Shown piece after piece: positions 397 to 23,800 of a DNA stretch of 64,000 bases. Origin of the DNA: Paecilomyces variotii (taxonomy: Eukaryota); the NCBI GenBank assembly GCA_004022145.1, contig RCNU01000001.1, one strand, 5' to 3'. The translations under genes and the position numbers were made by a program. The notes under the pieces are model-generated. The model was not told the origin of the DNA and searched no databases. It was given only the letters and a program-made list of their open reading frames with translations. Within the stretch, counting starts at the first letter, position 1, and each line of letters opens with the position of its first letter.

Positions 397-1030
397 TTAA
401 TGACAGATCACTCTTAGGCACCTCACCTACTAGCAACGAGTTCCCTAGTCCTGCGTTCAGTTCTAGAGACTTCGTACAGTATAGACACACCAAATGGCTA
501 ATCTAAACGAAACTCTAAAGACCCACTGGAAAGCTCGAGCACCAACATTCTACTGGCGATGGTCGCCTTAGAAGACGATAGTGATCGAAGGATAAGGGCA
601 AATAAGCTTAGATTCTTTGATATACGATATAATGGGGCGGAAATGAGAGGATTGTGTATATAGAATTTACCCTTTGGGCGTCGCATTTAGAATAACATGC
701 CCCGGTCTTTCTGGTCAGGTTTTCGCTCTTATAGAACGGTCTGGATATAATAAGAAGAAATTAAACGTCTGGGAATTCAGAACAGTTAAAATAATAAGTT
801 CCTAATGTGAACATCTTACACTTTTCTAGCTGCACTGTAAGCGCGCATGTTTATTGAATCGCTTTTACCTAGGCATTACTTGAGAAAGACTGGATATTTG
901 GCCTGGCGAATTTGATTTGTAAAGACAAGGTGCCTAAGCGAATGAAACAAGGTCTCAGCCAATACAATTATGAGCAACACGTGCCTAGAACATATCAATA
1001 CCGCATTCTGAGTTCCTGCTATCTGCCAGC

Positions 1031-2424
1031 TCAGGCAGAAGTGCTAACAGCGCTACTGGTAGCAGTAGCACTCATAGGGGGCAAGCTACCCATTCCAGCC
1101 ATGTTCATGCTGAAGTTGTCATTGACTTCAGCTCCCTCTTCAGTCCAATAACCCTCAGGCGAGAGGAAATCGTCTCTCGTGCTATTCACAGCGATCGAGA
1201 TCCAGGCAAAGATGCCATCTGATACATCGTCACCCAGCAAGACGTATTCCACGAAGGGGTCAGTCGTATCAGCCTCCGTTGCAAGGATGCTGTCGTTAGA
1301 GTTCTCTGTCAACTCCTGCGTGTTGGTCGAATAGGGGGTGTTCTTCTCGACCTCGGTGATGAGATCCTGATCAAAGAAAATCTGACCGACATGCGACGAA
1401 TGCGTGTCATACATGCCAGCAAGGGTGCCGTTAGGAAGAATCCTCGTCTCATTGGCGGGATATGTGACAACTGTTAAGAAATCGTCAGCAAGAGATCTAT
1501 ATAATAGGGAAAGATTCTAAGTTGTCAACGTACCATGGATATGCACGGCTCTGCCCGAATAGTGACCAGGGAAGATGCTCTCGAAATGGACCACGCCATC
1601 ATTGCCGCTAGGTTGGATACCGCGAAGGAAAGTAGTATCGGCATTCTCAGTATCGTTCGAGTTGCCGTTTCCATTTGCCACTACACCAGAATAAACACCC
1701 TATGATGAAGTCAGGCATATAGAACAGCGTTTATTCAAAACAAGCTGGTGCACTGACCGTTGCGTTACAATGCCATATATCGGTATAGATGTTCGGCATA
1801 GGGTTGCAAGTATTCGTATCGACAAGCTGGATGTCGAGATAGAGGGGGACACCCTGCTGATCCTCAACCACATTCTTACGGATCAGCTCACCGGCAACGT
1901 CTATCGAAGTCAGTACACTTTTATTTGTGAATGCGGTCCTGGTCTTTCTCACAATAGGGTCCTTGCGTAACTTCAGGCTGTACGACACAAGTTCCTTCTG
2001 ATGCGAACAGTATAGCGGGATCTGTAGAAGGGTTGACGTTGGTCAGGTTGGAATGATGGTTTTTGGCCAGCACAGAGTCCAAGTCGCGTGCTCTCAGATA
2101 GCGAGCATCTGAGAAAGGTTAGTTATATTGTGATAAAATGCCAGCCATTGGGTATGCCTCTTGATTTCTCGACGTACCAGTATTCAAGCCCCTCTTCTTG
2201 CGCAGCTGCTGCACAGCGTTCTCACGACGCGCAACGTTGGCATCCTCGACACCGCGGGCCTTGAGTTTCGAAATGCACTGCGAAATACCTCGCGAGTGGA
2301 TGGGGTTATTGCGCAAGAAAGCAGCCCTCTCGGCAGCTTCTGCTTTGACATCGTGTCCAGGGTGAGCGAGTACAACACTTGCCAGGGCAGCAAGGCCGAC
2401 AGTGAGAGTAGAAAGTTGAACCAT
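1031..2424 (-). CDS. Secreted intradiol ring-cleavage dioxygenase-like protein, ~383 aa; exons 2424-2178, 2108-1953, 1900-1758, 1699-1534, 1470-1031
   Basis: Four GT..AG introns with branch-like CTRAC/YTAAC sites join to 1152 nt in frame. Signal peptide MVQLSTLTVGLAALASVVLA-HPG. Motifs PEVTQGPYYVAG, DIWHCNATGVYS, FLRGIQ, FPGHYSGRAVHIH (Tyr/Tyr/His/His Fe ligands), GQIFF. Ser/Thr-rich tail. Confidence 0.92.
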
Positions 2425-2975
2425 TGCCAGGTCTCTAGAAATGAATCAATAAAGGAGCAATTGAACGGTATGAAGTTGGCTCTCTGCGAGGAGGTTGACT
2501 GAATGAGAAGCGCCGTTGTTGGCTTTCTCCTTCTCAATATATATCTTTCTATTTGTTCATGAGAACCGGGATGCAGGTCTACAAAGTATTTGGCTCTATC
2601 CCATAAAGGGTTTATAAGTACGAGCTGGCGCAGGAGAAGCTCTCCTCGTACCTCAAGCCCGACGTATCACCGTCGTTTGGTTTCTCATTCCATGTCTTCG
2701 AGGCATTGATCTGGTCTATTGGATAGGGATAAACAAGGTACATACTTCTCACCTCCAATGGCCATATTTTCGTAAGCCAGCTTACGGCGACGAACACTGG
2801 CCTCGTAATAACTGGCAAGGCACAATGATAACGGAGCAGAGATTATCACTGGGGTTGATCGCAGATCGTTCCCGGAAACAGCCGGATATAGATGTTTTTC
2901 TGCGTACTACGGATGGTCTGGAGGACTTGGCATAGCGGGCTGTGAAATGCAATTATGCCCCATGGTCAAATAGAC

Positions 2976-2999
2976 TTATTATTATGATTATTATTATTA
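2976..2999. repeat. Short imperfect (TTA)n microsatellite in the intergenic region
   Basis: ttattattatgattattattatta read directly. Confidence 0.6.
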
Positions 3000-3965
3000 T
3001 GGCTCCAAATGTTATGGAACCAGAAGGTCCTCATACGCTTGGCAATGATTGAAAACGCATACTCATCTATTGGCCGCGTCAGTTTCTAGATTCCCCGGGT
3101 TGTCTGTCTTTCAACTTTTAGTCTCGATGATCCTCCCCCGGCCTAGGGGGCTTTCTACTAAGCTTGTTCTTAACACCGTATTAGTGGCGTACAATATTCG
3201 TCTCGTATTTTGAATTAAACGCCAGGAGTTCTGAAGTGGCATTCACTCCGCGTATAGGACTTCGCGTGAGGTGGCAAGGTCATCCTGTCAACTGGATACA
3301 TGTCGTTATCTTCTTATATGAAGAGGCAATCCCCTAAAATACCATAATGTTCATTGGTGTCCGTATAATCCGCAGATTGCGTAGCAGGCGAATTAGCAGG
3401 GCCACAAAGACCCATACGCAATGGAGCTGTAACATCTTGGCAGAGCACTATGAACCTAGGAGCATGGCAATGATGGACAGCTTTCGAGGCTATGCCGATT
3501 CCTCTTATTAATTCTAGCGTTGTTAATGCATGAAACAGATCGGCCGGATATCTACATTTGCGGTAAGTATAAACGATCATGTTTCGACGCGCGGTCTGTG
3601 CCAGAAACAGCACCACCTATAAAGCGGAGAAGGCGTGTATCTTATATGAATGAATTCTTGGCTTAAAACATCTTCAGCGCCTTTCCCGTCCTCCCTGTTG
3701 GACACTTGAGAATGTGGAACTACTCAATACCGGAAAAGGAAAGAAATTTGCACGTAGCCGGGCACAGCCGACTTGAGGCCATACGTACGTACTCCTTTGT
3801 ATGGACAAATGTTTATCTTGCAGGGTGGCCGACATAAAAAAGGATGCGACAACAGCGTGGGAAGGATATGTTTTTCCAGAAAGGTAGGGGCAAAGTCGTA
3901 CAGATATTCGCTTCTCTTTTCTTTTACTCCACGAGAATTGCTGTACACATTGAATATAGCCCATC

Positions 3966-5003
3966 ATGCTCGTTTTCTGCAAGCTACTCGTTGCTCTTCT
4001 AGTGACAACTATCGTCGCTGCCCATCCTGGACCGGATCCGATTCTTCCTCGTTCAGCAATTCAGCGTCGTAGTACATTGGCCAGGCGATGTGCCAGCCAT
4101 GTCGAGAGTTTTAACAAGCGCCGTATGGCCAAGAGAGCGATGAACAAGCGCTGGGCAGATTCAGGTCGCAACACCACGGTTGAAATCACTACGGAGGCAC
4201 CCTACTACGAAACCATTCAGAATGACACCTGCGTTCTCACCCCCGAGGTGACTCGTGGTCCGTATGTCTGGCCGCGCTCCCAGACTCTACGTCAAGACAT
4301 GACCGAGGACCAAGTGGGCGTCCCCCTGTGGCTTGATGTGGGAGTGCTGGATATGGCCTCTTGTGAACCTCTACCCAACGTCCTCCTCGATTTTTGGCAT
4401 TGCAATGCAACTGGCTCTTATTCTTCGTTCACTGGACTGTCTCCAAACACCGACTTTGTTAAACTCCTGTCTGAGTTAAACATTACTGATTATGATTTGG
4501 GTGTTACCGACCTCCATACGGACGACACGACCTGGCTTCGTGGAATGTGGCCTACCAACAAAGAGGGTCTCATGGAAATGAAGACAATATTCCCTGGTCA
4601 GTCTGTTTAAGGCAGAGACGTGTAATCACCGCAAACTACCTAACCTATATATGCCCCAGGATTCTATACCGGACGTTCTATTCATATCCACGTACAGGCC
4701 CACACCAACTGGACTCTCCGAGGAAACGGTACCCTAGTATCCAGCAACACTGTCAGCACTGGTCAGATATATTTCGAGGAAGATCTGTCGCAGAAGATAA
4801 TGGCCTTACAGCCTTACGCCTCCCATACGCAGATCAACCGCACCACTAACACTAATGACTCGGTTTTCTCCCAAGACACTGCGGGAGGATACAACCCAAT
4901 TGTCTCCGTCGTCCCGGCAGACGGCAAGGATGTAAACAATGGCATGATCGGCTATATAACTATCGGTGTTGATACAAGCGCCATTGAAACATTCAATAAA
5001 TAA
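3966..5003 (+). CDS. Secreted intradiol ring-cleavage dioxygenase-like protein, ~324 aa; exons 3966-4596 and 4660-5003
   Basis: Intron 4597-4659 (GTCAGT..CTAAC..CAG) gives 975 nt in frame. Signal peptide then AHPG. Motifs PEVTRGPYVWP, DFWHCNATGSYS, WLRGMW, FPGFYTGRSIHIH, GQIYF. Confidence 0.92.
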
Positions 5004-5306
5004 CCAAAGATATCTTGTATATAATGGCACTGACCATGAAATTGAAAATGAGATATTAGACTTCTTGTTGTGTATATTGAGCCCCACGAGCATTTCTAAA
5101 CCCGTATGCCACTGGAAGCCTACACTGCATTTGACGGATGTTATGCTGTTAAACTTTGAAAAGATTACCCTATAACTTATCGGGATATAATACTCTTTTA
5201 TTATCATTTGTAGTTATAATAGTGACGATCTCGAGGGTTTCTACTTAAGCTTATAAGTCTTTTTTTTTTGGCCGAAGGGTTACTGGGATTTAGGCTAGCT
5301 CCTAGG

Positions 5307-7997
5307 TGTCACGCTCGAGCAGACTAAATCAGATTCATTAAAGCTTCTAATCTAGTATGGCAGTATAATAGAGAACTTTAAGCTAGAGAAAGAAAAGAAA
5401 AAGAATTTAGAGAAGGAATCCTAATTCTTTTATTTATAGGATCCTTTATTTCTTAATTACTTCTAAATAATATAGGCAGTTAGATATTCTGCCGGCAGAT
5501 TCTTCTCTCTATCTCTTTATTAGGTTAGCGCTGTGTTAGTACTGTAATATTACCCCCTTATTTAGGCTAATTTGTTCCTAAATTAGTGAGATAATTATTA
5601 TTCTCTTATTCCTCTAGATAAATCTCTTTATTAGTATAATTAATCTAATAGTCTAAATTAGCTAGCGGCCTAGATTTATTAAAAAATTTATTATAGAACT
5701 CCTTAAGCTTTAGCAGTAAATTTTTAAAGTTTTTAATAAGATATTATATTAGATTTTTATTATACCTCTTCTATATAGCCCTATATTAGAGATATTTATA
5801 TCTAGTTTAAATAACTAAGATTTAATTAACTTCTTATTTTAATTTACCCTAGATCTTAGCCGGCAAGGGCTCTTTATAGATTTAATAAAAAATAGGATTA
5901 TTTAGCGCCCACTAGAGGTAATTTAGAAAGAATATAGGTTAAACCTTTATAATATTAGAGAGCTTTAATTTCTAAATATTTCCTATTTTTTTAAAAACCT
6001 TAAAGGGGCCTTTTATTTAGTTACTAAACTTTTATAAGGGTTAATTAAATATCTAGTTTATAGATTTAATAAAAACCTTATTGCTAATATTAAAATTAAC
6101 CTCTTAATAATATTTATTAGTCTATCTCTTTTACTATTTTTAGGCCTTCTTAATAAAGGCTTCTATTATCTTCTAGATCTATTAAAGCCTATATACCTAT
6201 TACTAAGCTTTAGTTTAATTAGCCTTTTTTAATATTAGGATAGACTATAGCACTAGTTACTAATTAAATAAAATATAGGGCTTATATTTATATTTAACTA
6301 TAAATAGAAATATTTTTATAGATTTTTAGGTTAGTATTACTGCTATAAAATCAACTATTAATAAATAATCTGACTAATTATCCTAATAGTAGCTAATATA
6401 GGGTTAGAGTCTTTAGGCTATATATTAGTTTAAAACCTCTATTTACCTGTTAATCTAGGGGTATATAGCTAAAAAAAGCTTTAACTTTACTCCTAGCAAG
6501 AAATAAAATTTATCTTAAAAATTTAAAATAAATTACAGTCTGCAATTAGAAACTATTATATTAAAAGCATCCTTATAATAATATATATACTTAAAAAAAA
6601 TCTTAGCTATAGTCTGTACTATAGCTATATTATAATAAAAAATTAAGATAAAATACTTACTAAAACAGTTAACTATAATAAATATTATATTATACTTATA
6701 TTTATTTTTTAGGAAGGATTAGAAGTCTATTAAGATATATTACTATAGTTATTTAGAAATAGGTAATAGTTAAAATAGCCCTAGTAGAGAGTTTTAAGGG
6801 TTTTTAGTTTAGCGGCAGGTTAAATAATTATTAATATATTAGTTAATAAAACTAGTTATTTAAGGCTAATAATAGTAGGATTTTATTAGTTGCTATATTT
6901 TCTAGCATTTAGAATAGGCAGTAGAGACTTAATAATAGACTTTATTTAAAAGATATATCTGTAGATTTCCCTAATTTAAAATAATTAATTATTTACTATA
7001 TAATAGGAGCTTATTTATTAATTAATATATAGAGCCTTCTTAGCCTATATCTTTACAGAACAGTACTAGTTTAGTATTTTTATAATTCTCTCTAAGAATT
7101 CTATTTACTAGGGTAAACTCTCTAGTTAATATTAAAGCTAAAAGGGTCTCTTACTCTATTAACTCCTTCTAGATTTATATATCTAAGACTTTAGGTCTTA
7201 ATAGACGCTAGGTCTAGTATTAGTTTATCTACTTCTTCTAGTAGGAGATATTCTTTTTTTATTATAATAAGATATCGGCTAGAGTATTTAACTTCCTTAA
7301 GTAATATTAAATTAAAAAATAATAATAAGATAGAAACTTCGCCTATTAAGCCTATTTTAAATTTAATACTTTAGTAATTATAAAGTATTTAAAAGCATAG
7401 TAATCTATTAAAATATTAAATAGCTTATTTATCTATAAGCCTATAAGCTCTGCATACTATTTCTTAAGGGCTTATATAATTGCTAAAAGCTCCTTATTAT
7501 AGATTAAATAGTTATATTTAGCTAATACTATTATCTTTAAATAATAGGCTATTAAATATTAGAGATCTTATTTATTTACCCGCTAAGTAAGTATAGTAAC
7601 TATAATATTATTTAAAATATCTGTCTTAATATATATATTCTTATTAAAATTATAATTACATAGAATTAATGCTAATTAGAGATATTTCTTTAATATTTTA
7701 AAAGCCTTATAATACTTCTAATTAAAGTTAAAAGGGTAATTTTCTTTAATTAGGTCTATTATTAATCTTGTAATATAACTATAGTCTTTAATAAACCTCC
7801 TATAAAAGTTGCAGAAATCTAGGAATAAATAGACTTTATAGACTATTCTAAGCTATTCTCAATCTTAAATAACAGTAACTTTCTTAGAGTTAACTTTAAT
7901 ACCTTTTATGCTAATAATAAAACTAAGATATTTTATTTATATAATATAGAATTCGCACTTTTTAATATCGGCTTATAGGCTAGCTTTTTATAAATAG
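5307..7997 (-). mobile_element. Ty3/gypsy family A, copy A1: 3' LTR (5307-5549), PPT, chromodomain/integrase/RNaseH part; interrupted at 7997 by family B
   Basis: Collinear with 40067-~42765. LTR starts TGTCAC. Reverse-complement PPT (ttaccccc) directly after the LTR. Confidence 0.9.
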
Positions 7998-8929
7998 TAT
8001 AGTAGGGGAAAACAGTAGAGAGGTTTTAAGAATATAATTAGGTTAGCAAGTTATATGCTATTATTAAAAGAAGTAGCTTAAATATTTCTAATAAGGTATA
8101 AGAGGAGAAAGGGCATTAATTAATTAGTTAATATAAAATAAAATAAATAATCCCCTTTTAATTATATTTTAATATTAGTTTAATATTAAAGCAGCCTCTC
8201 CTTTATTATACTATCTTATTCTTTAAGCTTCTCTTTTAGCTTTATTTTAAGGCCTAAAGACCTAAGCTACCCTTTCTTTTCTTTATATTTTTATGCTCTA
8301 AGACTTATTACTAAGTCTTAATACTCTTTTTTATAATAAATTAGAGCTAAATATAAGGGGTATTAAAATATTAAGTAAAAATAAGAAAGAAAGAAAAATT
8401 AAAAGCTAAAGTTAAGGCAGAAGTTAAAAAAAAGGATAAAAAATAATAAAAAAATAAATAAAACAGCTAAAGGAGATTATTACTATAAATAAAAAAAGAT
8501 AAATATATTTTATAAATTAATAAAGACAGCAAATATAATATAGGATAAAAGTATATATTAGCAATAAAAGAAAGAAAAAACTATTAAATATAAGGAAGAA
8601 CTTAGCAGATATAAAAAAAAAGCAAAAATTTAAAAAAAATAAGAAATTATTAAGTAAGAACTATTTATTAAAAAGTAAAAGAACTTCTTATTATTATCTT
8701 TATTACTATTTCTTTAAAAAAAATATAAAGAAAAGTACTAATCTTTTTAATATTAATAAAAATAAAAAAACTTCTAACTCCTTAATATTGCCAGATTTAA
8801 AGGTATAAATAGCTTAAGTATTTAAAAATATAGGGCTATTAATAATATAATTAATCTAAGTTATATTAACTCTACAGATATTAATACCTAGAAATCTAAA
8901 AGCACTATATTTTAGACTGGTTATATAGG

Positions 8930-9115
8930 TAGTTCGGTTTAGTTTGGGGGAGGGTTAGACCGCCTATAGCGGGTTTTAGTTTAGGGTAAGAAAACTATAC
9001 CTAAACCAAACTGTATTTTGGCGGTTTAGTTTAAAATTAAAAAAACCAAAATATTTGCTAAGACCGGGCGCTAAACTAACTTAAGTTAGATTTTTCTTAA
9101 ACAGTTCGGTTTAAA
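8930..9115. repeat. hAT left subterminal repeats (CGGTT/AACC motifs)
   Basis: Multiple ttcggttt, ggtttagttt and aaacc motifs. Short subterminal transposase-binding repeats are established for hAT elements. Confidence 0.7.
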
Positions 9116-9749
9116 TAGTTTATATAGTTTATAGTGTTAAAGGTATTAATATTTTATATTATTTTATATTATTATTAAATTTATATCCTTTTAAATCTAT
9201 AGCTAAAAAATAGTTTAGATATAATATTATTATATTAAATCTAAAAATATAAAGATAGTCTTTTAAGATATTATTAAATATTAATATAGACTTTAAAATA
9301 ATTGTTATAGAAATATATATATATATTTATAAACTATAGTGCTAATAGAGTATTATTAAATAATATATATAATTTATTATAAAAGCTAAAGTTATTAAAT
9401 TAAAGAATAGATTTTATTTATTATTATTATTTTTAATAGAAAGTAATTTCTAGATTATTTTTTTAATAAGTTAATAGTAAAATTTATATATAATTAGTAA
9501 GTTATAACTTCTATAGAAAATATATAAATTCTATATATTTATAAAGTTTATTAAAATTCTAACTTAAGTTTAAACTACTAAGATTATATTATTTTTATAG
9601 CTATTTTTTTTTTATCTGGATATAGTTTTTAAGTTAAATATTATTCTTTTATAATAGATAATCCCCTAATTAAGCTGTTTAATATAGCTATTCTATTATA
9701 AATTATAGATACTTATTTTACCTTAATTTAGCTTTATTAATATAATATT

Positions 9750-10800
9750 ATAATAATAAAATTAAGGTTTTTTTCTTATTAATTTTAAGAAATAATTTTG
9801 TATTAGAAGAAGAAATTAATGTAGTTATTTTTAGCTAGGATCTTGTGGATTATAATCCTAAATTATAAGATACTTTCTCTTATTATTTGAGGAAGTAATT
9901 AAAGTAATCCCCTAAATATATCAGAATTATTTGTCCTAAATTAGATTAGTTATTTATATTTTTATTAGTGTACTAAATATAATAAGCTAGGTTACTTAAT
10001 GCTTTTTTACGGTAGACTATAAGTAGAAATATATATCTTATATATTAATATCGGGTAATAAAGTTTATTAATTTGTCTTTTAAATAGCATTAGGAAAAGA
10101 AAGAAGGCGAGGATAAATATAAGAATATCTCTTAATCTTATTAAGCTAAATAAGAAATATAGTAATTTTAGATAAAGTAGCTTTAAGATTAGTAAAGATA
10201 TCCTTAGGAATAATTAGATTAATCTTAATAATAACTATTATAATCTAGGGCTAATATCTTTTTTTTTTAAAGGCAAATTGAATGAGGTAGTTTTAAAAGA
10301 GAAATATTAAGATTTTATAAAGCAATAGTTAAGAAAAATTATAAGTTATTTATTGTTATAATAGCTCTAGATGCGGAGGGTAGTTTAAATAGATAATCTG
10401 AGCCAGAAAAGAGTATTTTAACTTAAGTTAAAATATATTAGAAGGTTATACTTAAAGTGTTTAGCGCTATTTTAGCTATATTACTAAATAAACTAACTAT
10501 TGCCTATATATAACTTAGTCTATAGAGGAATAAGATAAGTAATAAATATTATGTGCTAATCTTTTAGTTAAATATATCTGATTAAAACCTAGGAATCTGA
10601 AGCGCCTTTAAGATATTATTATAAGCTATTAAGAAAGAAATATAAGTAGTAAGTTATTATAAGATATTATTAATAATAGAGATAATAATAAATTAAATAT
10701 ATAATAGACCTATTTATAATTTAACTTAAGTTAAAATTTATAAGTTTGGTCTTTAAAAAGTAGGCAAGGCTTACTTATTTAATTAGCGGTAATCTTATTA
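9750..10800 (-). pseudogene. RIP-degraded intron-containing gene relic of unknown function inside the hAT; boundaries approximate
   Basis: Minus-strand introns 10774-10710 (GTAAGC..TAG) and 10451-10398 (GTATAA..CAG), and a further CTAAT..TAG acceptor near 9936. No recognisable protein motif. Confidence 0.45.
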
Positions 10801-11199
10801 GTAATAGTTAATTAGAGCAGTAATAGAATAATTAATAAGGGAGCCTAGGGAGTCTCTAATATTATATATCTATATATATGCGATTTTCTAATTAGGTATA
10901 GTCTATATTGGGAGTATATATATTATATTATTTTTTTTTTTATTATATTTATTTCTTTTATTAAATATATTTTTTAATAAAAAAAGTAGATTCTAACCTA
11001 GTTAGAATTTAATTAAGGAATTTTAAGTAAGGAATAGCGTATAGACTAGATAATAATTTAACTTAAATTAGATTATTTTTAAGGATATAAGGGAAGATTA
11101 TTATATATTATTATAAGTTACTAACCCTATTATAATTAAAATTCTAACTTAAGTTAAAGGCTCTATAATTTTATTTATTAGAGAGATAGTATAAATAAT

Positions 11200-14100
11200 A
11201 AAAGCATTTATTAGATAATAAGGTAAACTCTTTAAGATTTTAGTATAGAGAATTTAGCTAGAAGTATTAGTAAAAGAGACCTAAGGCTTATAATTATAGC
11301 AATTCTATAGAACTTTATTTAGATTTTAAGCTTATTTAGATCAATATATTATATAGGCTAAAGGCCTATATAGCTAAGGCTAGAGTCTTTTTAATAATAA
11401 GAGATAATATAATTTGTATAGAGCTCGAGAATAAATATCTAAGAATATTATATATAGATATAAGGAAGTTTAAAATATCTTAGAAAGATATAGAATATAA
11501 TTAAGATATTAATACTAATTATATTAAGAATTTAAAGAATAAGTTCTGTATTAGTATATAGAGATTTAATATTAATATATAAATAAAAGTAATCTTAAGC
11601 GCTAAGGACTTTAACCTAGCATTACAGGCATATATAGTAGAATTACCAGAATTAATAGATATTAGTAATATCTGCAGTCTCTTAAGGCAGCGGTAAGATA
11701 AAGATAATAATTTTTTTATTTATTTAGAGAAGTGGCTGAAAAAGTTTATATTATTAATATTATAAGCCGGGTAATATTATTGTGCGGTTTTTTTAGAGCT
11801 ATTAATTAAGCAGAAAGAAGTAGCTGCTGCTAAAGCTATTAATTATAAAGAAAAGATAATTAAGAGATTATAGGCTGATATATATCCCTATTTTAATTTA
11901 AGTTAGAATTTAACTAATTGATCTATAGGTATATCTTTAGGCTATTAACCTCTATAATAAGGCGATGTTATTAGAAGTTCTTATAGTATTATAATCTAAT
12001 TATAAAAATATTGCTTGCATTAATACTAATAGAGAGTATATACTTTTATTTATTAAAAAGTGGGAGAAGAAATTTGTAGATTAATATAAGAAACTACTAA
12101 AGAATTATAAAGAGTTTAAAAATTAGGTGTATTTTATTATTAGTATATTATTTAATTATATAACTTATATTATAGCCCCTCTATATAATAATATTTAGTT
12201 ATAATATTTATAGGAATATTTATAAATAGCTTATAGTTACTTTTATTAGAATTATATATTAGGAGAGATAATTATAAATATAAAGCTAGATTAGGTATAT
12301 TTAAGGATCTAATTTTAATTTTAATTTTTTAACTTAAGTTAGATCTAGATTATAGAGTTTAAGAAGTTTTTTAGCTTTACTAAGATAATCTTTATAGATA
12401 AGTAAAGCGGAATAATATTAGCAGAGAATTAGAGACTAATTATTAAGTATTATTATAGTATAAATAATTATATCTTATATATATTATTTTTTCCTTCGCG
12501 GGTAGATTATAAAAATAATAAATTTAAGCTATTTTTAGATTATAAGTGATTTGATAAATAGTTATTATCTTGCTTAAAGATTCTTATACCATTTCTTAAG
12601 AACCCTATTTAATAACTGTCTTTTCTTATGGCCCTGCTAGATAAAGCATATATATAAATATAAAAGAATGTTTTAGAAAATAGGGAACTTAAGTTCCCTT
12701 TATAGTAAGTTTTAATTTAAGTTAGATATAAAAATTAATTATAAACTAATTATTATAGGAACTTATAGATTAATCTTAATAATAAAGTTAATCTCCTATT
12801 AAAATCTATATTAAAATATATTATATTCTAATATAATTTAAAGGAGTAGTATCCTGCTGCGGCCTTTAAATATTTCTAAGAATTTTAGTAGATAAATAAA
12901 CTTTAATATTCCCTTTTTTATAAGTTTAATAATATATATATTACTAAGGATTTTATAGAAAAACTTGCTAATAAGCTTTATAAAAACTTTCTATAGATCT
13001 AGGCAGATTTAAAATATTATATAATAATCTTACTTAACTATAATTAAAATTAATATTAATATCTTTTAGCTGTTAGAATTATATAGCGATTTCTATTTCT
13101 AAGATATTAAAGAATAAAATAGTTATAACTAGTAATATATATATCTTTCCTATTTTAAGTAGTGTTATTAGGCTTATATCCTCTATATAATTTTTAAAGC
13201 AGTCCTATTTAACTTTAAGAGTATTATAAGTTAATTTAATAATAAGAGTAAGATTATAAGTTTAGACTATTTTAACTTAAGTTAAAATTAATATAATATA
13301 GGGTAAATAACTTTCTATCTTTATTGCCTTTAGTAATATTATGTAGTAAGCCTAATTTTAATATAATAATATAATAAAGAACCTGAGAATCTTAAAAATT
13401 AACTAGTATAAAAATAATTTAAAGACCTAATCTAATATTGCTGGGGCTTTATAGATATACTAATTTATTAAGAAAAGCATAGTTTATATTATAAAGCTTA
13501 GCTTTTTTAAGACTAATAATTATAAGAAGAATTCTGAGGATTTTATTAAGACTAAGGTATATATACTACTAATCTAATTTAAGTTAGAAATTAACTTAAT
13601 TTAGAAGGAATAGTATTAATATTTATAGATATTAAGAGAGGTTGCTAATCTTTTAATTAAGTGGGACTGGGCTCTAGATATAAATAATATAAATAAATAT
13701 CTGCGGTATTTTATATTGGACTATAATTTTAAAATTAAGAATAAATATATTATTTAGAAAAAGTTGTATATACCTTTTTTAATCTTATTAAACTAATTGC
13801 TAATAAATAAATGCCTTTATAATAATAATAAAGAATAATATAAGCTGGAGAATTAGAAACAGCTCTGAGCTATTATTTTTAATATTTTAAGGAAGAAATA
13901 GAAAGTATTAAAGGATTTTATAGGTAAACAAATTGGTATATCTATTTTAACTAAAGTTAGAATAAGATTTAATTAAAATTTTAGATTAAGATGCAGAGAT
14001 TAATAGGGTAAATAATATATTTTAAAGGAATAGTATAGATAATAATAATAAAGGTAAGTTATTTTTCTTATTAATTATATTATTAAACAGTTATAATAAT
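11200..14100 (+). pseudogene. RIP-degraded multi-exon cargo gene with ParB/sulfiredoxin-like (DUF3723-like) N-terminal signature; boundaries approximate
   Basis: One frame 11463-11879 has only TAA/TAG stops and de-RIPs to W...NRDID..H...L...F..G.QR.D...RMKV...LQAGQHR (11763-11780). After intron 11880-11928 it reads YLWAIDLYD. Further introns 12295-12348, 12705-12758, 13248-13301, 13557-13604, 13936-13984. Confidence 0.55.
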
Positions 14101-14699
14101 ATTATTATTATAAATATAGAAATAGGGCTAAGTTTTTAATTTAAATTTAGGTTTTTTAATTTGGCTTTGGGTAAGCTATTTTAATAATGTTTACTTAGTA
14201 TATAAGAAACTAACTTAAGTTAGAAGTAAAATAATTAGGTTTTTTTTAAACTAATAATATAATCTCTACTTCTAAGTTAAATTATCTAAGAATAGTTTTT
14301 CTTTAATAATAAGAACTTATATTATTTAGAAGCTTTATCTCTAACTTAAGTTAGAGTAAATTCTATTAATAGGACGGAAATTAGTTTTTAAGGATTTAAT
14401 TTAAGTTAGTATAGCTATTGCTTCTTATTTCTATTTTAAGATAATAATTAGAGATAGAAAAATAGGACTGTAAAGATAAGGACTATAAAATAGAAGAAAA
14501 AAATAATATATCTTAATAATCTAGGCTGGCTTTATAATAACCTAAGATATAAATATATCTAAATAAGAATCTAATTTAAGTTAGAATATTATAGATATTA
14601 TATTGCTGTTAATATTATTATTTTTAAATTTCTCCTCCTTCTTGCTTTATTTTAATAGGGATATATTAAGATTACTAGGTCCTTTATTATAATTTTAGA

Positions 14700-17300
14700 A
14701 TTATATTATTTATACTCCTGCAGAGACTTATAAGACTTCTTTATTTTTAAATATTAATATTTAGGATATAAATTTTAATTATAATCTTATTAAATAATAT
14801 AAGCCCTAATCTAAAGCTAATATTCTTAACTTAACCGAACTTAAGATAGTAAAATATAGTTAAGGAAAGGCTATTATTTATTTAGCTCTTTTAGAATAGG
14901 TTTAGATTTTTAAATCTTAATAAAGTAAAATAGAGTTTATAAAATAATAGTCTAAGTTTTAATAGGTAAAAATAAAGACTTAATTATATATATAGCAATA
15001 TTATTAAGAAGTTATAAATAATATTTTTAGCGTTTCTTATATATAATATTTATATTACTCTATATTTCTTTAATATCCTTATAAAAGAGGAAATAATATT
15101 AGCTCAATAGCTGCCTATATAAAAAGGGCTATATACTAATCTAGAAATAAGACTCAGAAAAATAGCAATATTTAAAATATATTAATTATAAAGGTAAGAA
15201 CTAGGTAATTAATATAGACTTTATTATTAATATTTTTTTTAGAAAACTTTTAATCTAATATATATACTAGATATATTATATGATTAGATCCTGTATTTTA
15301 TTATAGGATATTGCTAATTATTTTAAATAGTTAAATATATTTAATTCTATTGTATGTTATATACAGTTATTAGTAATTTATATCTAGAATTACCTAACTA
15401 ATATTAGATTTAAGTATGCCTTTTTAAATTTAAGGAGATTAATTATATTAAAATGCTATTATATTTATTAGAATAAAGAAAGATTTCTCTAGTATTAGAT
15501 TATTAGATTAATTAAAGTTAATATTCTTTTCTTGCTATAACTGGGTATTTTATTAATATAAAATAGATATATAGGGAAGTATTTTTAGCCTTTAATCCTG
15601 TCTATAAATTATATATTAGAAAAAATTTAGCTAAAATACTGCTAAAGAATCTTTGTTAATATAATTTATAATATTAAATCCTTGCTATTATTATAGATAA
15701 TATAAGTAATAATATTACCCTAATAGCGGAGCTAGATAAAAGCTTAAGGGGTAAGCTTAAAATAGATTTATTATTAGAAGATTTCTAAGATATAATATTA
15801 AGTTAACTTATTTTAAATTGTTATTATATTCTATATTTAGTATATGTTTTATAACTTATAGTTAATGCTTTATTAAGTAAACTCTATATTAATGCTCCTA
15901 TTAATAATAGTATTAATTAAGATATAAAAAAGAATAAAGGCCTATTATATTCTTAGGGTATCTTAATATTATTAGAAAAGGTATTCTTTATCTAACTTAA
16001 GTTAGATTAATATTAACAGATTTTTATATAGGTTCGCAAGATTATTAGATTTATTAATATGAGCTCTTAGTATTAGGAATATTTCTTAATATTATAATAA
16101 TTAAATATTAGTTAGCTAAAATTATTACTTTTTAATTGCCGGATATAATAGAATTTAATATATCTTATACTTATATATGCCCTTAAACTATATGTAATAA
16201 TTGGATAATTTATTATATTATAGGCTAATAAAGATATTTATTTTCTGATATTATCCCCTACTAAATAGTATTAGGTTAAATATCTTATTAAATTAATCTG
16301 GCTATTCTATAATCTTACTTTTACTATATTAAAGATAAATAGTTTATTAGTTTATAGGGTTTTTAAAATCTATAATGCTATCTTTAATTATCTTAATAAT
16401 TATATAGAGTATTTAAAATTAAAAAGAGCTATATAGAAGATCTAACTTTAAGATATTTTATTTAAAGCTTATAATAAGTTATAAATTTATTATGCTAAAA
16501 TATATAAATCTTAAGGATTTATATATATAATTATAATAATCCTTTATCTTAGCATAAAATTTAAATATTTTAAAACTTAAGTCTGGTAAGATATAATAAA
16601 AAACTAGTATAATATTTATAAAAAGATTTTTTATAAGATATTTTAATACTATAGTAATTAAAATCTAAATATTAAGGTATAATTAGGAATTTATTTGTTA
16701 GTCTTAATCTTAGATTATACGCTTATATAATCTAAATATTATTATCTCCCTTTAAGTACTACTAATATTTATTGAGAAATTTAGATTTATCTTATTGAAG
16801 ATAATGTTCTATCTAATATTATATCTAAATTATATAGTATTATTCTAACTTAAGTTAGATTAGGTTTATTAGAATTAGATAATATCTTTAACTATTGGAG
16901 AATTAATAAATACTAATTCTTAATTCTTATAATAATGGCCTGAGATTTTTTTATAATCTTATTAAATAGTATTAGTATAGAATAATTATTTAATAGTATT
17001 TAAGATATTTGTTATTACTAATATAGCCGACTACTTTCTGATATAATCTATGCTTTAATGCTTCTTATATATATTAAAAATTTTACTATTTAGTAGGAAT
17101 TTAAGGCAATAATTAATAATATAAATATAATATCTAATAATCGATAATCTGAAAGAGAGGAGATTAAATTGCTAAATCTAATTAATAATAATAAGGATAT
17201 AGATAATATATTAGAAGGAGAGATAGATATAAATAATAAAGATTATTAGATAGAGCAGTTTAGGGGTTAAGGTTTTTTAAGTATTTAAATAGATTAACTT
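14700..17300 (+). pseudogene. hAT DDE transposase relic; boundaries approximate
   Basis: De-RIPped motifs: ISLxLDxW..SFLAITGYFI (15481-15560), TDNASNN (~15690), IPCLAHVLQL (~15830), EK|VRKI across intron 15981-16031, RWNSTY (~16146), MARDF....VERLFN..RDICHYRRSRL (~16933-17035, hAT C-terminal dimerisation domain). Confidence 0.85.
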
Positions 17301-17619
17301 ATTATTGAGTTTACTTATAATAAAGGAGAATAATTAAATAAATTGCCTGTATCTAGAGTTTTTATATATTTTTGGAGGAATGCAGTAATTATAAATAGAC
17401 CTAAGTCTTCTAGTTATTGCTTGTATTGGATTAACTATATTAAAGGCTAATATAAATGTTAAGAATTTAACTTAAGTTAGACTCTAATATTGTATTCTAA
17501 TATTATTCTACTAATTTTTAGTTAATATTTAGTGATAGATATTATAAAGAAATAAAAATCTAAATAGTTCTTAAAGATTAATAAGATTTATATAAAAATT
17601 CAGATTAATCTAAAGTAAC

Positions 17620-17805
17620 TAAAAAAAACCAAAAAAACCGAATTAAACCAAAAAACCTAAAAAAACCAAACCTAAAAAAACCATATAGTGCATCATAAAC
17701 TATTGGTTCGGTTTACAAAGTCTATAAACCGTTCCGGTTTATAAAATTATAAACCGAACTAAACCATAGGCGGTTCGGTTCGGTTTAGTTCGGTTTTTTT
17801 GGTTT
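17620..17805. repeat. hAT right subterminal repeats (AAACC/AACCG and CGGTTCGGTTCGGTT)
   Basis: Read directly; mirror of the left-end motifs. Confidence 0.75.
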
Positions 17806-20800
17806 TCTATAACTACTCTACTATATTTTAAAGGGGATAATATTACTTATTACCTAAGGCTTTTTAAGAGGCTATATAAGGTAAATTAGCTTTTAAAAAA
17901 GGAGAAAACTAAATAGTTTATAGACTATTATAGCCTGTTAGTAATATTATAAATAAATATATAATCTAAATATAAAGAGAAGAACTACCTAAAACTAGCA
18001 AAAGCAACTAAATAAAAATATACCTATTATTATAGGAAAGGGTATTAAGACTTAGCAGTAAGTCTTAGAGCATAAGAATATAGAGAAAGGGAAGGATAGC
18101 TTAGGTTTTTAGGCCTTAAAATAAAGTTAAAAGAGAAGCTTAAAGAATAAGATAGTATAGTAAAAAAAAGGCTGCTTTAATACTAAACTAATATTAAAAT
18201 ATAATTAAAAGAGAATTGCTTATTCTATTCTATATTAATTAACTAATTAATGCCCTTCTTTCTCTTATATCTTATTAGAAATATTTAAGCTACCTCTTCT
18301 AATAATAGTATATAACTTGCTAACCTAATTATATTTTTAAAACCTTCTTACTATTTCCCTCTATTATATAGCCTCTTTTTTTTTATATATAAATACCCCT
18401 GTCTATCTTCTTTAGTTATTATAATTTATACTATCTCCTCCTTTTAATATTATAAATTATTCCTAAAGTAGGAATACTCTAGTTTTTAATATTATATATA
18501 TTTTAAAATCTCTAACTTATAAAGCTAAGTTCTTTTCTTCTGCAAATAATTTTAAATTAATAATATATCTTATTTTAGTATAAAATATAGCTTTACTTTA
18601 ATTTTTAAGTAATCTTAATTTAGCTAATTAAGTATTACTCTGCCTATAGCTATAACTCTATTTACCTAAATATTAAAAGGCCTAGATTCTTCTTAATTAA
18701 ATTTTATCTTATTTTATTCCCTATAATTAAAATAATAAATATTATTAAGATTTATTCTTTAATTCTCTAGTATTAGCTAATATAAATCGCTGATAAAAGT
18801 TATTTCTTCTTATTTAAGTATAATATCTTTTAAGCCTATAGTTTTCTTAAACTTATCTTTAGCAATTAGTCTAGTCTCTAAGATTATAAAGCCCTAGCCT
18901 ATTTTTCCTTTAGGGATTATAGTCTTTATATTTAATGCTTTTAGCTTATATTTTTTAAGATATTAGACCTATAACTTATATTTACTGTAACTATATAATA
19001 CTAATTAAATTAAATAGATTTAGATATCTTATGCAATAACTTTCTAAAGAATATTTTAAGATAAATTTTTAAGCCCTATTAATTTTTTACCCTTTTTTTT
19101 ATAATAAAGGGCTGTTTTTACTTTTATAATAATATATTATAATATCTCTTTTATTAGTTTCTTTTTAAAAGATATAATTTAAAAAACCTTATTTACTTCT
19201 TAATAGTTAAAGTCCTCCCTTATTATAATACTTTACTAGATATATTAGTTTTATATCTTATTTAGAGTAAAGTCTTCTTTACTTAAGTTAAAATATTTTC
19301 TGTCCTTATATTTAGATTTAAAATATTCTTTAGCCTTATATAAATTATCTTAAGCTTTATAATATAAGCTGCTAGGTATATTATTAGAAATATTTATATT
19401 AATTAATTTAAGATCTCTAAATAATTAAACTATCCCTAATACTAGAGATTTTTTAGGGAGAAGGTCTTTAGATAAGGTTTCTTTAATTTCTATATTATTT
19501 TTATCTTTTATATTTTTAGGACTTCTTAAAATAAAACTTTTTATTTTTTTTTTAACTTAGCTGTTGCTAAGTATATTTAATATTTACTTAGCCTTTAAAT
19601 TATCTTTAAATTATATAGTTCTAGTATTTCTTATATTTTTTAAGTGCCCGGTTTCTTTCTTAATAAAGAGGTCTTTTAAGTTTATTATAGAAAAAGAGGA
19701 CTTTTTTAATTTTATATTATTAGTAAATTCTTTAATTTTTATAAGTTTAGGTAAAGTACTATTAGGCCTTTTTTTACCTTTTAATTTATTAATCTAAATT
19801 ACTAAAGGCGCTTATCTAAATTTAATATTATTTAAAGAGTTCTGCAGCCGCTCTTCTAATAATATCTTTAATAAATAATATATATTTTTAAAAAAGGCCT
19901 TTATTTACTGCTTTATAGCTATTAATATTATTTTAATTATTGCTTTTAAAACTTCCCTAGTATTTTTAATTAATATTTCTTTTTTTATCCCTATTATACC
20001 CGCTAAAAAATATATATAGGGTTTATAAATTTTTTAAAGCTTTCTTAGTATTAATTAATATAATGCCTTCTTAATATCTTTTTCTATTATTAATTTACTA
20101 CTAATCTAGCTTTATTATAGTAAGTTATTTTTATTATTATAGTTATAGTTCTTAAAAGATATATTTAAATAAAAGCTATATTAAAACTACCTCTAATATT
20201 TATTATATATTAATAAATTATAGAGATTATTATTATTTTTAGTAAATATTTTTAATCTTCTCTTTAATAATTTTTCTTTTACTATATATATGCTTAATAT
20301 TACTTAAATCTTATTAATATACTTATAATAAAGTTTATTAATATTAGTTCTTTCTTATTAAAGGCTATTTATAACTTTTTTATTTTCTTAGCTAAGGAGC
20401 GCCCTTTTAAATAATTTTAATATCTTAGTCTTATAATTATAGCCTTCCTTTATCTATTTTCCTTTTTTTTATATTCTAATCTTTTTCTTATCTTTAAGTT
20501 TCTTAAGGCTCTTTATTCTTTTTTTACTCTTTTTTTTTTTTTATTTTATTATCTTCCTTATTACTAATAGTAAGGTTAATTAATAAGCTTTTTTTTAGGT
20601 CTTTAATTATTCTTTCTGCTTTATATTCTAGAATCTTTTTTAAAAAAAAGTCCTCTTTAATTTATATATTAATTAATTAAAGCTCTGTTTTTATTATTTT
20701 AAATAAAAATTATCTACTTCTATTAGTTATTCTTTTTAAAAGGTTTTTTACTCTTTTAATATTTATTAATAATAGGTTTTTTTCTGGCTATATATTAGGC

Positions 20801-23800
20801 TTTCTAATATTTAATAATCTATTTATTTAAGCTTATATTAAGTAAATAACTACCGCTCTTTATTCCTTAATTTATTTTATAATTTCTCTTAATGCTATTA
20901 AGGTTTAATAGGCTTTTTTAGCTTATATTATTAGCTAGCTAACTACTTATTCCCCCTATACCTCTACTACTATTATATATCCCTTATTTATATAATTCCT
21001 ATTTTTTCTTATTTTTTTTACTAATTCTTTAAATTCCCTAATAGCTTTCTTTTTTTTAGCTTAAGCTTCCTTTAAAAGCTTTTATTATTTTAGGAACTTA
21101 TAATAGTCTGCTATAGCCTTATCTTATTTAATTTAAAATTTTATAATAATAGTTACTACTTTAACTATAAATTTAACCTTTTTTAGTCTATTCTTTATTA
21201 CAGTAATTGCTCTCTTTATAAAATTATAGATTTCTCTTATAGTTATATAAGTATTTATATTAAACTTTAATAACTATTTTTATAAAACAATATTTTAAAT
21301 TTAAAATATATTTTCTTCTATTTTAGCTTAATAAGATTATATAATAGTTTTAGTCTAATAATATTTAATGCAGAAAGGGGGTATAAAATAATTAAACTTA
21401 AGTTTTTTAATAATATTTATAAATAAAGAAATAAGGTTCTTAATATAAAGTAAGATTTCTTTATTATTGTTTTATATTTTTTATCTAATATTTTTTTTTT
21501 AGTAATTAGAAGAGTCTGGCCTTATTCTTTTAATAATATATATATATTCTTCTATTTTATTTATTCTTAAGTCCTTCCCCTTCTCTAAAAAATTTAGGCG
21601 CCTTTATCTTTAGTTTATTTACTCTCTTTTATCTTAAGCTAAACTCTTATTTAATATTAAACTTGCTTTATTATTAGCTTTTTACTTTCTCTTCTTTTAA
21701 GCTAATATTTTTAAAAGGAGGGTGCTAAGACTATAATTATATATATTAATCTAAATAATATTTAGTCTATATTATCTTTATTTTTGCTTATTTACTAATT
21801 TTCTTATTTAAGTTCTATATTATTATTTATTGCTAATATATCTCTTTAATTATCTTATAAATAATAGCCTTTTAAGCAATTTTTATAAATTAGGTCCCTA
21901 AAAGCTATATTATCTAACTCCTTAAGCTTATAAGAACCTTTTTAAAGGACTTCTTTAATTTAATATAGCCCTAGCTAGTAATATGCTAGTTTAGCAGAAT
22001 AAAATATCTTAAGCTTTATATTATAAAGTAGAATTAGTTATTCTTTAATTAGTTATTCTTTATAAAGCTGCTTTTTATTATTAAAGACTTCCTTACTAGC
22101 TTCTTTTATATGCTAAATATAAAGCTAAGCCTTCTTTATATCTTAATCTTTAAGCTTTATTTACCTTGCGTAAAGGAGTAAAAGGTTTTTTATAGTCCTA
22201 ACTTTATTCTATGCTAATATCTTTTAAGTAAATACTTCTAGTTTAATTAATAGTACTATATTATATCCTATAATTACTCTAAATAGTATTAAACCTATAA
22301 AATTCTTAACTATATTTTTATTTACCTAAATTACTGCTAGTAGGTAGTTTATTTAATTTATTTCTATTCTTTTTATAAGTTTTTTAATATTATATATAAA
22401 GGATTTATATATAACTTTAACTGCTTTATTTACTTATAGGTTATATAATATAACCTTAATATAGTTAATCTTATACTTCTGCATTAATATATTAACTATA
22501 GTTTTATTCTCCGGCTCTTTATTATTAATAAGAGTTTTTATTACTTTTTAATAATAAATCTAGTTTTTTTATAAGAACTTAATAATAGCTCCTAAAATAG
22601 AGCTGCTAAATATTCTATATTTAACTTAGCTAAAGTTATCTTAAAGTATAATAATATAAGTCTTTCCCTTACTAGGCAGTATAATCTTATAAATATCTAA
22701 GTATAGTTTTAATCTCCTTAATAGAATAAATATTAATTATAAAGCTTTTTTTATATATTCTTTATTAGCTTTTTAATATTTATTATATATCTTTACCTAT
22801 TTAGTAATATATTTATATAGGCCTTTTTACTAATATTAATTAGCCACTTTCTTATATATTGCTTTATATTTTTAATATCTATATTCTTTATAAAGGGTAG
22901 TAAGAATCTCTTTTTACTTTCTTTTATTATTAATAACTATTTAATAAGGCTAATTTTACTATATTTTCTAGAAAAGGATATTATCTTATATTATATATTT
23001 TATAGCCTCCTTCTTAAACTTAGCATATTATCCCTAGTTTATATTATTTAGTTTTATTATAATTTATAACTATTCTGCGATTAATAAAGACTTTTCTAAT
23101 TAATATAATATAGGTATTAACTAAGGGATATTATTTAATTCTACCTCTTATATACTAGTATAATAGACTATATAAAACTATAAGTCTAAGAATTTCTCTA
23201 TATTATTATCTTCTGCCTCTTTTAGATTTTATTTTATTATTAATTTCTAAGATAATCTATCTATAACTAAATTCTTTTTTCCTAATATATAGATAATATT
23301 AAAGTTAAATAGCTAAATCTAAGTAATTTACTAAATAATTATTAACTTAGGGAGGTTTATAGCTATCCTATTTAATTGCATAATTAGAGTTTTTATATTT
23401 ATCTTTAGTTAAAAGTATATATTATATAAATATACTCTAAACTTATAAAGAGCCTTTAATATTATCCTATATTTTAGTTTTTTTTTATTATATTGTTTCT
23501 CCGCTTATATTTATATTTTATTTTTATATTTAGCTAGATATCTCTTATTAGATTTTTTTTCTTTTTAAGTAAGTTATACCCCCTATTTATTATTACTGGC
23601 ATCTATATTAATAATAATTATCCCTTTTTTTTTATAGTTAATTAACTTAAGTACTAGGGCTATTATTAAAGCTACTTTTAAAGTATTTATTAAGTCCTAT
23701 TAGTTTAGTCCCTAAAGGAAGTCTTATCTTTTCTTTAATATTAAATATATTAGTTTAGCCTTAGTAGTATATCTTTTAATCTATATCTAATAATAGGGTA

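Follow-up and report, generated by a model that had tools for sequence, protein, structure and literature searches.

Transposons are known to control their own activity through binding sites at their ends and, in a few cases, through one regulated intron. hAT transposons carry subterminal repeats that bind their transposase (of the AAACGG type in Ac), and in the P element intron retention limits transposase. Mer1-dependent yeast introns have one enhancer motif in several introns, and ParB-parS arrays consist of multiple 16-bp palindromic sites that serve partition and condensation. Here we describe a 16-base inverted repeat that recurs about 19 times within a hAT element of Paecilomyces variotii, at positions 8913–17820 of a 64,000-nt stretch of contig RCNU01000001.1 (assembly GCA_004022145.1; this whole stretch is called the window below). 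The motif is a cis element of a transposon, and thus belongs to a known category, and most of the introns proposed for the element hold a copy of it. Among several readings, we tentatively favor one in which it is a pre-mRNA stem-loop that masks or presents a branch point.

Each of the described systems shares some features with this locus. As in Ac-type hAT elements, the element has an 8-bp target site duplication (TSD), short terminal inverted repeats (TIRs), a C-terminal dimerization domain and repeats within ~300 bp of its ends; unlike in those elements, the motif studied here is not subterminal but spread over the 8.3-kb interior in introns and spacers, and at least one extra conserved gene is present. 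A short intronic cis element setting splicing efficiency, as we propose here, would be akin to the P element third intron and to Mer1-dependent introns. In those cases, however, proteins bind single-stranded motifs in one intron or a few, whereas here an inverted repeat lies on the branch-point consensus in nearly all introns of three genes. The likeness to ParB-parS is a multicopy 16-bp palindrome, but no ParB-like protein was detected, the centers in relatives are non-palindromic, and the carrier is a eukaryotic transposon. Fungal hAT and other DNA transposons with extra genes are known (PMC12730594, PMC6710886), and the present element likewise has a gene besides the transposase; that gene lacks a recognizable family, however, and the portions of those two papers available to us mention no element-wide intronic motif. 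Introner-like elements and sister introns, including stwintrons, are portrayed in the accessible parts of two further papers as whole near-identical introns with 45–55-nt inverted repeats, newly inserted genome-wide in host genes (PMC4457414, PMC8469720). Going by these parts, they resemble our case in having related sequence in many introns, internal symmetry and a predicted structure, but differ from it in that only a 16-nt core is shared here, at old intron positions (A, 9 and 10) and in one transposon lineage. A full-text search of the literature (main texts), including the sequence strings of the motif, returned no description of it.

The motif is strongly concentrated in the hAT element, as the original prediction, made by a model from the letters of the sequence, had claimed. 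GC content in the window is normal (~47%) over ~5 kb and ~20% over the following ~59 kb, which is the signature of repeat-induced point mutation (RIP), and the element (GC 0.194, 8,908 nt) and its AT-rich flank (GC 0.211, 49,593 nt) are alike in this respect. The exact core AACTTAAGTT has 15 matches in the window, 13 of which lie in the element between 9078 and 17478, against a mean of 0.54 and a maximum of 3 in dinucleotide shuffles (0/100 shuffles reach 15). Both remaining cores (21395 and 32016) lie in a large inverted repeat, one per arm, and since these arms are 84% identical they count as a single independent occurrence. A RIP-tolerant 16-mer, TYTAAYTTAARTTARA, is found 14 times in the element and nowhere in the 49,593 nt of flank (300 element shuffles: mean 0.00, maximum 1), so that density in equally AT-rich flank does not approach that in the element. 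The pattern YYRACTYRAGTYRR, put forward as a test in the original prediction, gives 11 matches in the element and 1 outside. Eighteen of the 19 sites listed there were recovered at the same position or within 3 nt, among them a 22-bp palindrome, while the remaining one, at 12682, shares the 10-nt core of the motif but has different arms and lies in coding sequence. Our scan also returned a weak copy at 11057, together with four AT-rich near-matches that lack the core (at 12827, 13033, 15393 and 17063). The copies are as follows.

9075–9090: motif copy ACTAACTTAAGTTAGA, within the left subterminal repeat cluster
9558–9573: motif copy TCTAACTTAAGTTTAA
10414–10435: motif copy, 22-bp perfect palindrome, in proposed minus-strand intron 10398–10451
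10720–10735: motif copy, in proposed minus-strand intron 10710–10774
11057–11072: weak motif copy TTTAACTTAAATTAGA, absent from the list of the original prediction
11143–11158: motif copy, ~200 nt 5′ of the gene 2 start
11892–11907: motif copy, in intron 11880–11928
12328–12343: motif copy, in proposed intron 12295–12348, acceptor 5 nt away
12682–12699: variant, 18-bp perfect palindrome AGGGAACTTAAGTTCCCT, in a gene 2 exon (reads R-E-L-K-F-P)
12711–12726: motif copy, in proposed intron 12705–12758, donor 6 nt before
13271–13286: motif copy (20-bp perfect palindrome 13269–13288), in proposed intron 13248–13301
13573–13588: motif copy, in intron 13557–13604
13946–13961: motif copy with center TAAA, in proposed intron 13936–13984
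14209–14224: motif copy, in the spacer between gene 2 and the transposase
14340–14355: motif copy (18-bp perfect palindrome 14339–14356), in the same spacer
14395–14410: motif copy, in the same spacer, 55 nt past the preceding copy
14570–14585: motif copy, in the same spacer
15991–16006: motif copy, in transposase intron 15981–16031 (intron 9)
16844–16859: motif copy, in transposase intron 16801–16863 (intron 10), with CTAAC 14 nt from the acceptor
17466–17481: motif copy, beginning 4 nt past the transposase stop, ~350 bp from the right end

The association with introns that had been noted from the sequence holds in the window and in its relatives. Of the 11 proposed introns, ten contain one copy each, and the 11 together amount to 590 nt, or 6.6% of the element. 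Support from outside the window is available for 5 of the 11 (11880–11928, 13557–13604 at its 3′ edge only, 15194–15242, 15981–16031 and 16801–16863), while the other six, both minus-strand introns included, were placed by GT..AG boundaries and frame logic alone (12295–12348 by frame continuity alone). For gene 2, a hypothetical protein whose source names Paecilomyces variotii (P0151) has 46–60% identity to 11352–12234 and joins the flanking exons exactly across 11880–11928, so that an annotated protein sequence confirms this intron. For the transposase, a HMMER search with the stop-masked frame 15243–17252 found 415 proteins at E ≤ 1e-3 (best 2.6e-68). Its best three matches (P0001, P0002 and P0008; 51–57% identity) are un-RIPed open reading frame (ORF) fragments of the same family on public-run contigs of up to 8,358 bp. 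One of them, P0002 (ending ...LEKVFSI), continues four codons into intron 15981–16031 and stops at a TAA in the left arm of the motif; another, P0001 (ending ...SIILT), reads into intron 16801–16863 and stops at a TAA in the motif center. At 16800–16802, the donor of the latter intron, P0001 has Gly (GGT) where the window has Asp (GAT), which confirms that this donor is RIP-eroded. The original prediction had called two donors RIP-eroded, and the exact join in P0151 and the Gly codon in P0001 both agree with it. Contigs from two RNA libraries cross 12295–12348, 12705–12758 and 13248–13301 unspliced, but these are RIPed copies with possible DNA carry-over and are uninformative on splicing. Many apparent joints fall at motif positions (e.g., 10740>13609 and 11153>13742); they were rejected as real deletions, their short sides being 20–31 nt, and are taken to reflect the aligner hopping between copies.

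Un-RIPed relatives carry the same motif in introns at the same positions. Scanning metagenome contigs with the transposase alignment gave 80 related loci (29–53% identity, 280,578 nt), none of which has the RIP-form core in numbers. A second scan, with the arms fixed and the 4-nt center left free, produced 18 matches at ≤1 mismatch across the 80 loci, 16 of these in three loci (L001, L002 and L004), against 0–6 in each of 20 shuffles; at ≤2 mismatches the scan is noise (127 matches vs. 94–138 in shuffles), and only matches with 0–1 mismatch were used. The three loci are un-RIPed (GC 0.38–0.44) with intact reading frames, and their transposases are 52% (L001 and L002) and 43% (L004) identical to that of the window family. 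L001 has seven copies, L002 six, and L004 five at ≤1 mismatch plus one degenerate copy. Their common form is TCYAAC-N4-GTTRGA, in which the arms are conserved and the center, of 3 or 4 nt, varies. In L001 the right arm is GTTGGA in 7/7 copies and the left arm is TCCAAC (TCCAAC-TCTG-GTTGGA and TCCAAC-TCGG-GTTGGA) or TCTAAC (with centers TCAG, CCGG, GCGA and ACGA), the seventh copy having a 3-nt center; the left arms of relatives in general are TCCAAC or TCTAAC, and their centers, which also include CTAT and others, are mostly non-palindromic.

Copies were placed by tblastn exon mapping and reading of the DNA. In L001 they occupy all three transposase introns (822; 1713 and 1771, a tandem duplication; 2657) and recur past the stop codon (3369, 3425 and 3479). 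In L004, one intron of gene 2 has a copy at its 3′ end and another copy spans the stop codon of that gene; further copies occupy the spacer and transposase introns A and 9, and the degenerate one is in intron 10. Intron 15194–15242, the one window intron without the motif, corresponds in position to motif-bearing introns of both relatives (L001:799–878 and L004:1339–1398). The upstream gene of L004 is homologous to gene 2 exon 13605–13935 of the window (13623–13718 vs. the L004 upstream ORF: score 44; 200 shuffles 23.8 ± 3.3, maximum 39), and in both the exon starts directly after the end of a motif-bearing intron. Gene 2 is therefore a conserved second gene rather than a recent capture. These comparisons leave no room for the view, offered with the original prediction as grounds for abandoning it, that intact homologues lack the motif or lack introns at these positions.

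Several further observations concern the relatives themselves. L002 is a near-identical copy of L001 at another site, with 9 transitions in 3,601 nt; a G-to-A change at the donor of intron A and two in the right arm of a motif copy (L001:799, 832 and 836) may mark the start of decay of that copy. Tandem units of 55–57 nt, with one motif each, make up L001:1705–1836 (intron, two units) and L001:3360–3505 (3′ untranslated region [UTR], three units). In L010, four motif-like units follow the transposase stop (L010:2083–2215; TCTGAC-AGCC-GTTAGA, TTTAAC-GGCC-GTTAGA and others), with one more in intron 10. They are ambiguous, L010 belonging to another clade in a quick tree, and they contain TAACGG/CCGTTA, which to us recalls Ac-type subterminal hexamers. 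The same tree groups the window family with L001/L002 and the motif-less L003 (support 95) and leaves the placement of L004 unresolved. Other loci have family-specific palindromic repeats near their ends (L005:531–1161 and 4290–4379, L011:180–906, L033, L038 and L051). Recurrent palindromes among the related loci (GCCCATGGGC seven times in L005, GGGAATTCCC five times in L011 and ACCGATCGGT three times) were considered as dispersed intronic motifs, but these 10-mers are ordinary subterminal repeats, and a scan of the related loci for other recurring 6+N+6 inverted repeats found none of the dispersed intronic kind.

Comparison of introns across loci suggests that the motif is younger than at least three of the introns it occupies and older than the RIP that now shapes it. 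Intron 9 (after ...LEK) is common to 11 of the 12 related loci examined, and intron 10 (before the ...FW(K/R) exon) to many loci, down to ~50% identity over the first 60 residues of P0008, which border this intron. Most loci with intron 10 have ordinary branch points there (ACTAAC or ACTAAT, 11–20 nt from the acceptor) and no inverted repeat. In L001 and the window, the left arm TCTAAC takes the place of this branch point and the right arm occupies the interval up to the acceptor (TCTAAC-CCGG-GTTGGA-TTTAG in L001 and TCTAAC-TTAA-GTTAGA-TTAG in the window). Because the same positions are used in motif-less relatives, introns A, 9 and 10 do not owe their origin to the motif, and a shared origin of the introns, one alternative raised at the outset, fails for at least three of them. 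On this comparative evidence, the motif originated within one sub-lineage, in introns that already existed, and was afterwards kept or lost. It is nonetheless ancestral to the copies compared here, since it is present in homologous introns and past the stops of un-RIPed relatives, and we take it on the same grounds to be a selected signal rather than a by-product of decay. Motif-bearing introns resemble one another over ~16–24 nt only, the rest being unalignable, and the window introns share no longer repeat. As sources of the motif, hAT excision footprints were rejected since they would be palindromes of local flanks rather than one conserved sequence, and a miniature inverted-repeat transposable element-like insertion was rejected given the absence of flanking duplications and the old intron positions.

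RIP gave the copies their uniform, perfectly palindromic look and did not create the motif. GTTGGA to GTTAGA is a TpG-to-TpA change, and YYRR centers (TCGG, CCGG, TCAG) become TTAA under C-to-T and G-to-A changes, so that varied YYRR centers have probably collapsed to TTAA; C-to-T at CpT also occurs (Ser TCT in P0002 vs. Phe TTT in the window). P0002 and P0001 have TCTAAC or TCTGAC as left arm in introns 9 and 10 already (Leu and a stop in place of Pro and Gln), and thus imply T at arm position 3 and a center that begins with T and continues as TAA, TAG or TGA. For the window family, the pre-RIP center and right arm can be put forward from its relatives. The pre-RIP arms that had been reconstructed from the window, TCCAAC and GTTGGA, are accordingly half right: GTTGGA is the L001 right arm throughout and TCCAAC occurs in relatives, but introns 9 and 10 had TCTAAC or TCTGAC. 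The fixed center T(C/T)(A/G)A proposed with them does not survive the variety seen in relatives. The idea of stops in all three frames on both strands was likewise rejected, since it applies to the RIPed TTAA form only and not to the centers of relatives.

What the motif does is best accounted for, in our tentative view, by the branch-point stem-loop, whose action at the RNA level, formation in vivo and effect on splicing we infer from sequence. The left (5′) arm contains CTAAC, which we take to be the fungal branch-point consensus. In the pre-mRNA, the 3′ arm would pair with this CTAAC-bearing 5′ arm in a 6-bp stem with a 4-nt loop, and each intron of the element would carry the same masked or presentable branch-point-like site. 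In intron 16801–16863, its L001 homologue and proposed intron 12295–12348, the motif would be the best-placed branch point and the hairpin would gate splicing directly; in other introns the motif lies 5′ of a second branch-point-like sequence and may offer a common intronic handle. The outcome would be coordinated, probably inefficient or conditional, splicing of all genes of the element, with retained introns truncating the proteins much as in the P element. This reading is consistent with the position of the left arm in intron 10 at the ancestral branch-point place, where it is the sole candidate in L001:2621–2676. CTRAY sequence and distance to the acceptor (10–40 nt) fit in that L001 intron, in 16801–16863 and in proposed intron 12295–12348, although they misfit in four window introns. 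The stem-loop is present in the minimum-free-energy fold of 7 of 12 stretches, an eighth having a shortened form (three pairs) within a longer stem. Constancy of the arms across families of 43–52% identity while the subterminal repeats differ (GGGTCGG in L001, GGTTCGG in the window element) suggests a conserved host partner, e.g., the branch-point machinery.

Other results weigh against the stem-loop. Covariation is absent, with 0 of 6 pairs changing on both sides among 12 un-RIPed copies. Such a pattern, with arms conserved and the loop free, would be expected if recognition held the left arm constant and pairing with it constrained the right, but the customary proof of an RNA helix is lost all the same. 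The paired fraction (93.1%) is no better than in shuffles (94.4%), 3 of the 12 copies have a C·A mismatch at pair 3, and 5 of the 12 have TCCAAC, which makes a poor branch point. In thermodynamic terms the hairpin is marginal, with single introns ranging from z +0.9 to −2.4 and mostly like shuffles; only the three tandem units of the L001 3′ UTR, folded together, stand well clear of shuffles (z −4.2). Its place in the introns varies, and in four window introns it begins 6–12 nt from the donor, too close for a branch point. Finally, conserved arms with a fixed 4-nt spacer of free sequence are equally the classic form of a dimeric DNA-binding site.

This last point leads to the chief competitor, that the copies are double-stranded DNA sites, arrayed over the element and bound by a dimeric protein through TCYAAC half-sites set 4 bp apart. 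We regard this as possible, and rank the splicing hairpin slightly higher than a site bound by an element-encoded protein. Candidate binders could be a host factor, the transposase N-terminus (BED finger) or one of the products of genes 1 and 2; sites would lie wherever coding constraint allows (introns, UTRs, spacers), and their cis role would be to compact a long element or join its ends, to autoregulate transcription or to set chromatin state. Inverted half-sites that are conserved around a spacer of fixed length and free sequence are as expected of such sites, as is their arbitrary place within introns. All four Y/R combinations at positions 3/14 occur, C.A included, a better fit to a degenerate half-site than to a helix. 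Moreover, copy 9075 belongs to the left subterminal cluster and copy 17466 lies near the right end, and gene 2 and the motif co-occur in both families for which upstream sequence is available (the window and L004). Yet the identity of half-site and branch-point consensus is then left to chance, no DNA-binding domain was detected in gene 2 by Pfam and PDB searches (AlphaFold model confidence 42), the regularity of one copy per intron in homologous introns is not required, and a half-site that stays constant while subterminal repeats drift is odd for a site co-evolving with a fast-evolving element protein. A special case, a parS-like array bound by a ParB-like neighboring cargo as envisaged in the original prediction, seems very improbable to us, the likeness being only the formal one of a multicopy 16-bp palindrome. 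A Pfam search of the six frames of 8920–17810 gave no ParB-type match at E ≤ 1, weak evidence given that RIP lowers sensitivity; only the 6-nt arms are conserved in un-RIPed relatives, around a non-palindromic center, and proposed gene 1 has no homologue in any search. An explanation of another kind, which we consider unlikely, is that the motif is left over from the history of the introns and now does little, being an old 3′ module (branch point, complement and TTTAG) that is now decaying after spreading among introns and UTRs by local duplication, gene conversion or introner-like multiplication. The tandem motif units of intron B and the 3′ UTR in L001, the (T)TTAG that follows several copies and the similarity reaching a few bases past the 16-mer speak for this, and proliferating fungal introns with internal symmetry are known, as far as the consulted parts of PMC8469720 and PMC4457414 go. 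However, introns A, 9 and 10 predate the motif, intron similarity is confined to ~16–24 nt, and arms that outlast 43–52% protein identity in homologous introns of three families are more than neutral decay would allow. That the palindromes are mere RIP by-products, TTAA-rich sequence produced by C-to-T changes, has next to no probability. RIP did sharpen the copies (GTTGGA to GTTAGA and YYRR to TTAA are transitions, and the element has 19% GC), but this explanation is already refuted by the complete absence of the motif from 49.6 kb of equally RIPed flank and by its presence in un-RIPed relatives of 38–44% GC.

The element is assigned to the hAT superfamily from its 8-bp TSD, its short TIRs and the homology of a C-terminal dimerization domain. 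Its parts, in order along the window, are listed below.

8905–8912: left TSD, CTATATTT, 8 bp, identical to the right one
8913–17820 (8,908 bp), plus strand: whole hAT element, recognized by TSD, TIRs and transposase homology, heavily RIP-mutated
8913–8927, plus strand: left TIR, TAGACTGGTTATATA, matching the reverse complement of the right end
8913–9212: left subterminal region, with three CGGTT/AACCG
9800–10900 (approximate), minus strand: proposed gene 1, the “ParB-like” cargo of the original prediction
11352–14050 (3′ end approximate), plus strand: gene 2, a conserved second gene of the hAT lineage
15194–15242, plus strand: transposase intron lacking the motif, situated 13 codons 5′ of the conserved D-Q-I/V-L-R-F-I-I stretch
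15243–17462, plus strand: transposase coding region, whose three exons share a frame and are separated by two in-frame introns, with the TAA stop at 17460–17462
17521–17820: right subterminal region, with nine CGGTT/AACCG
17806–17820, minus strand: right TIR, matching the left end
17821–17828: right TSD, CTATATTT, identical to 8905–8912

The first bases of the TIRs are identical between ends at 11 of 13 positions, one further position being a transition, and CGGTT/AACCG occurs just twice in the 8,308-nt interior. The transposase model begins at 15243, with the N-terminal exon or exons lying further upstream. P0008, which is 53% identical to 16935–17459, matches Pfam Dimer_Tnp_hAT with 27.2 bits (cut-off 21.4), while the window's own stop-masked translation gives E 0.073 with this domain, short of the cut-off. 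Word-index protein searches with the stop-masked RIPed transposase, and with P0151 against longer proteins, gave no match, because RIP destroys shared words and the length windows excluded short ORF fragments. Gene 2 has no Pfam or PDB sequence match and no DNA-binding domain was found in it; Atlas pointed to DUF3723 (score 0.93 with 150 features in common), a lead that Pfam did not bear out, and a single-sequence AlphaFold model (pLDDT 42.5) was too poor for a fold search. For proposed gene 1, neither a homologue nor a Pfam match was found, but all its frames are stop-rich and RIP lowers sensitivity.

This copy is RIP-inactivated, with many stops, and is single in the window, where a second was not found. 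The family as a whole is present in very many copies in the source organism: in one sequencing run (X1), 3,332 contigs have ≥80% likeness to it, and the differences among them are almost all transitions. Across runs X1, X10, X19 and X20, contigs of the family number in the thousands (80–99% likeness, nearly all differences transitions). The family was also detected in food-fermentation and grain metagenome runs, and RIPed copies are among the contigs of two metatranscriptome libraries. Elsewhere in the window, positions 1–5000 form the ~47% GC flank, with a sharp drop to ~20% near 5000–6000, and the ORFs there resemble secreted intradiol-dioxygenase-like proteins (HPGHD... and FWHCNATG motifs, judged by eye). 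Another RIPed repeat, 20002–22918 vs. 33420–30501, is present in opposite orientation at 84% identity over ~2.9 kb and is probably longer, its alignment being bounded by the stretch supplied; its two arms carry one each of the AACTTAAGTT cores that lie outside the element.

At least three diverged hAT families retain one 16-nt motif in homologous introns, and introns of a second gene have kept it too. Such retention implies that intron sequence is under selection throughout an entire mobile element. A practical consequence is that the motif, which survives RIP as a conspicuous palindrome, can serve as a marker that flags this family in AT-rich compartments. If it gates splicing, it would provide a testable model of coordinated intron control and branch-point masking in short-intron fungi; if it is a DNA site, it would indicate that long, cargo-bearing hAT elements need an internal cis sequence in order to move. 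A bolder proposal, to which we give a low probability, is that of a transposon-wide splicing switch, in which one trans factor gates all introns of a three-gene element (the gene 2 product or a stage-specific host factor could be that factor), or else of DNA sites that zip the element together for transposition. Either, if true, would be a form of self-control that has so far not been described for transposons.

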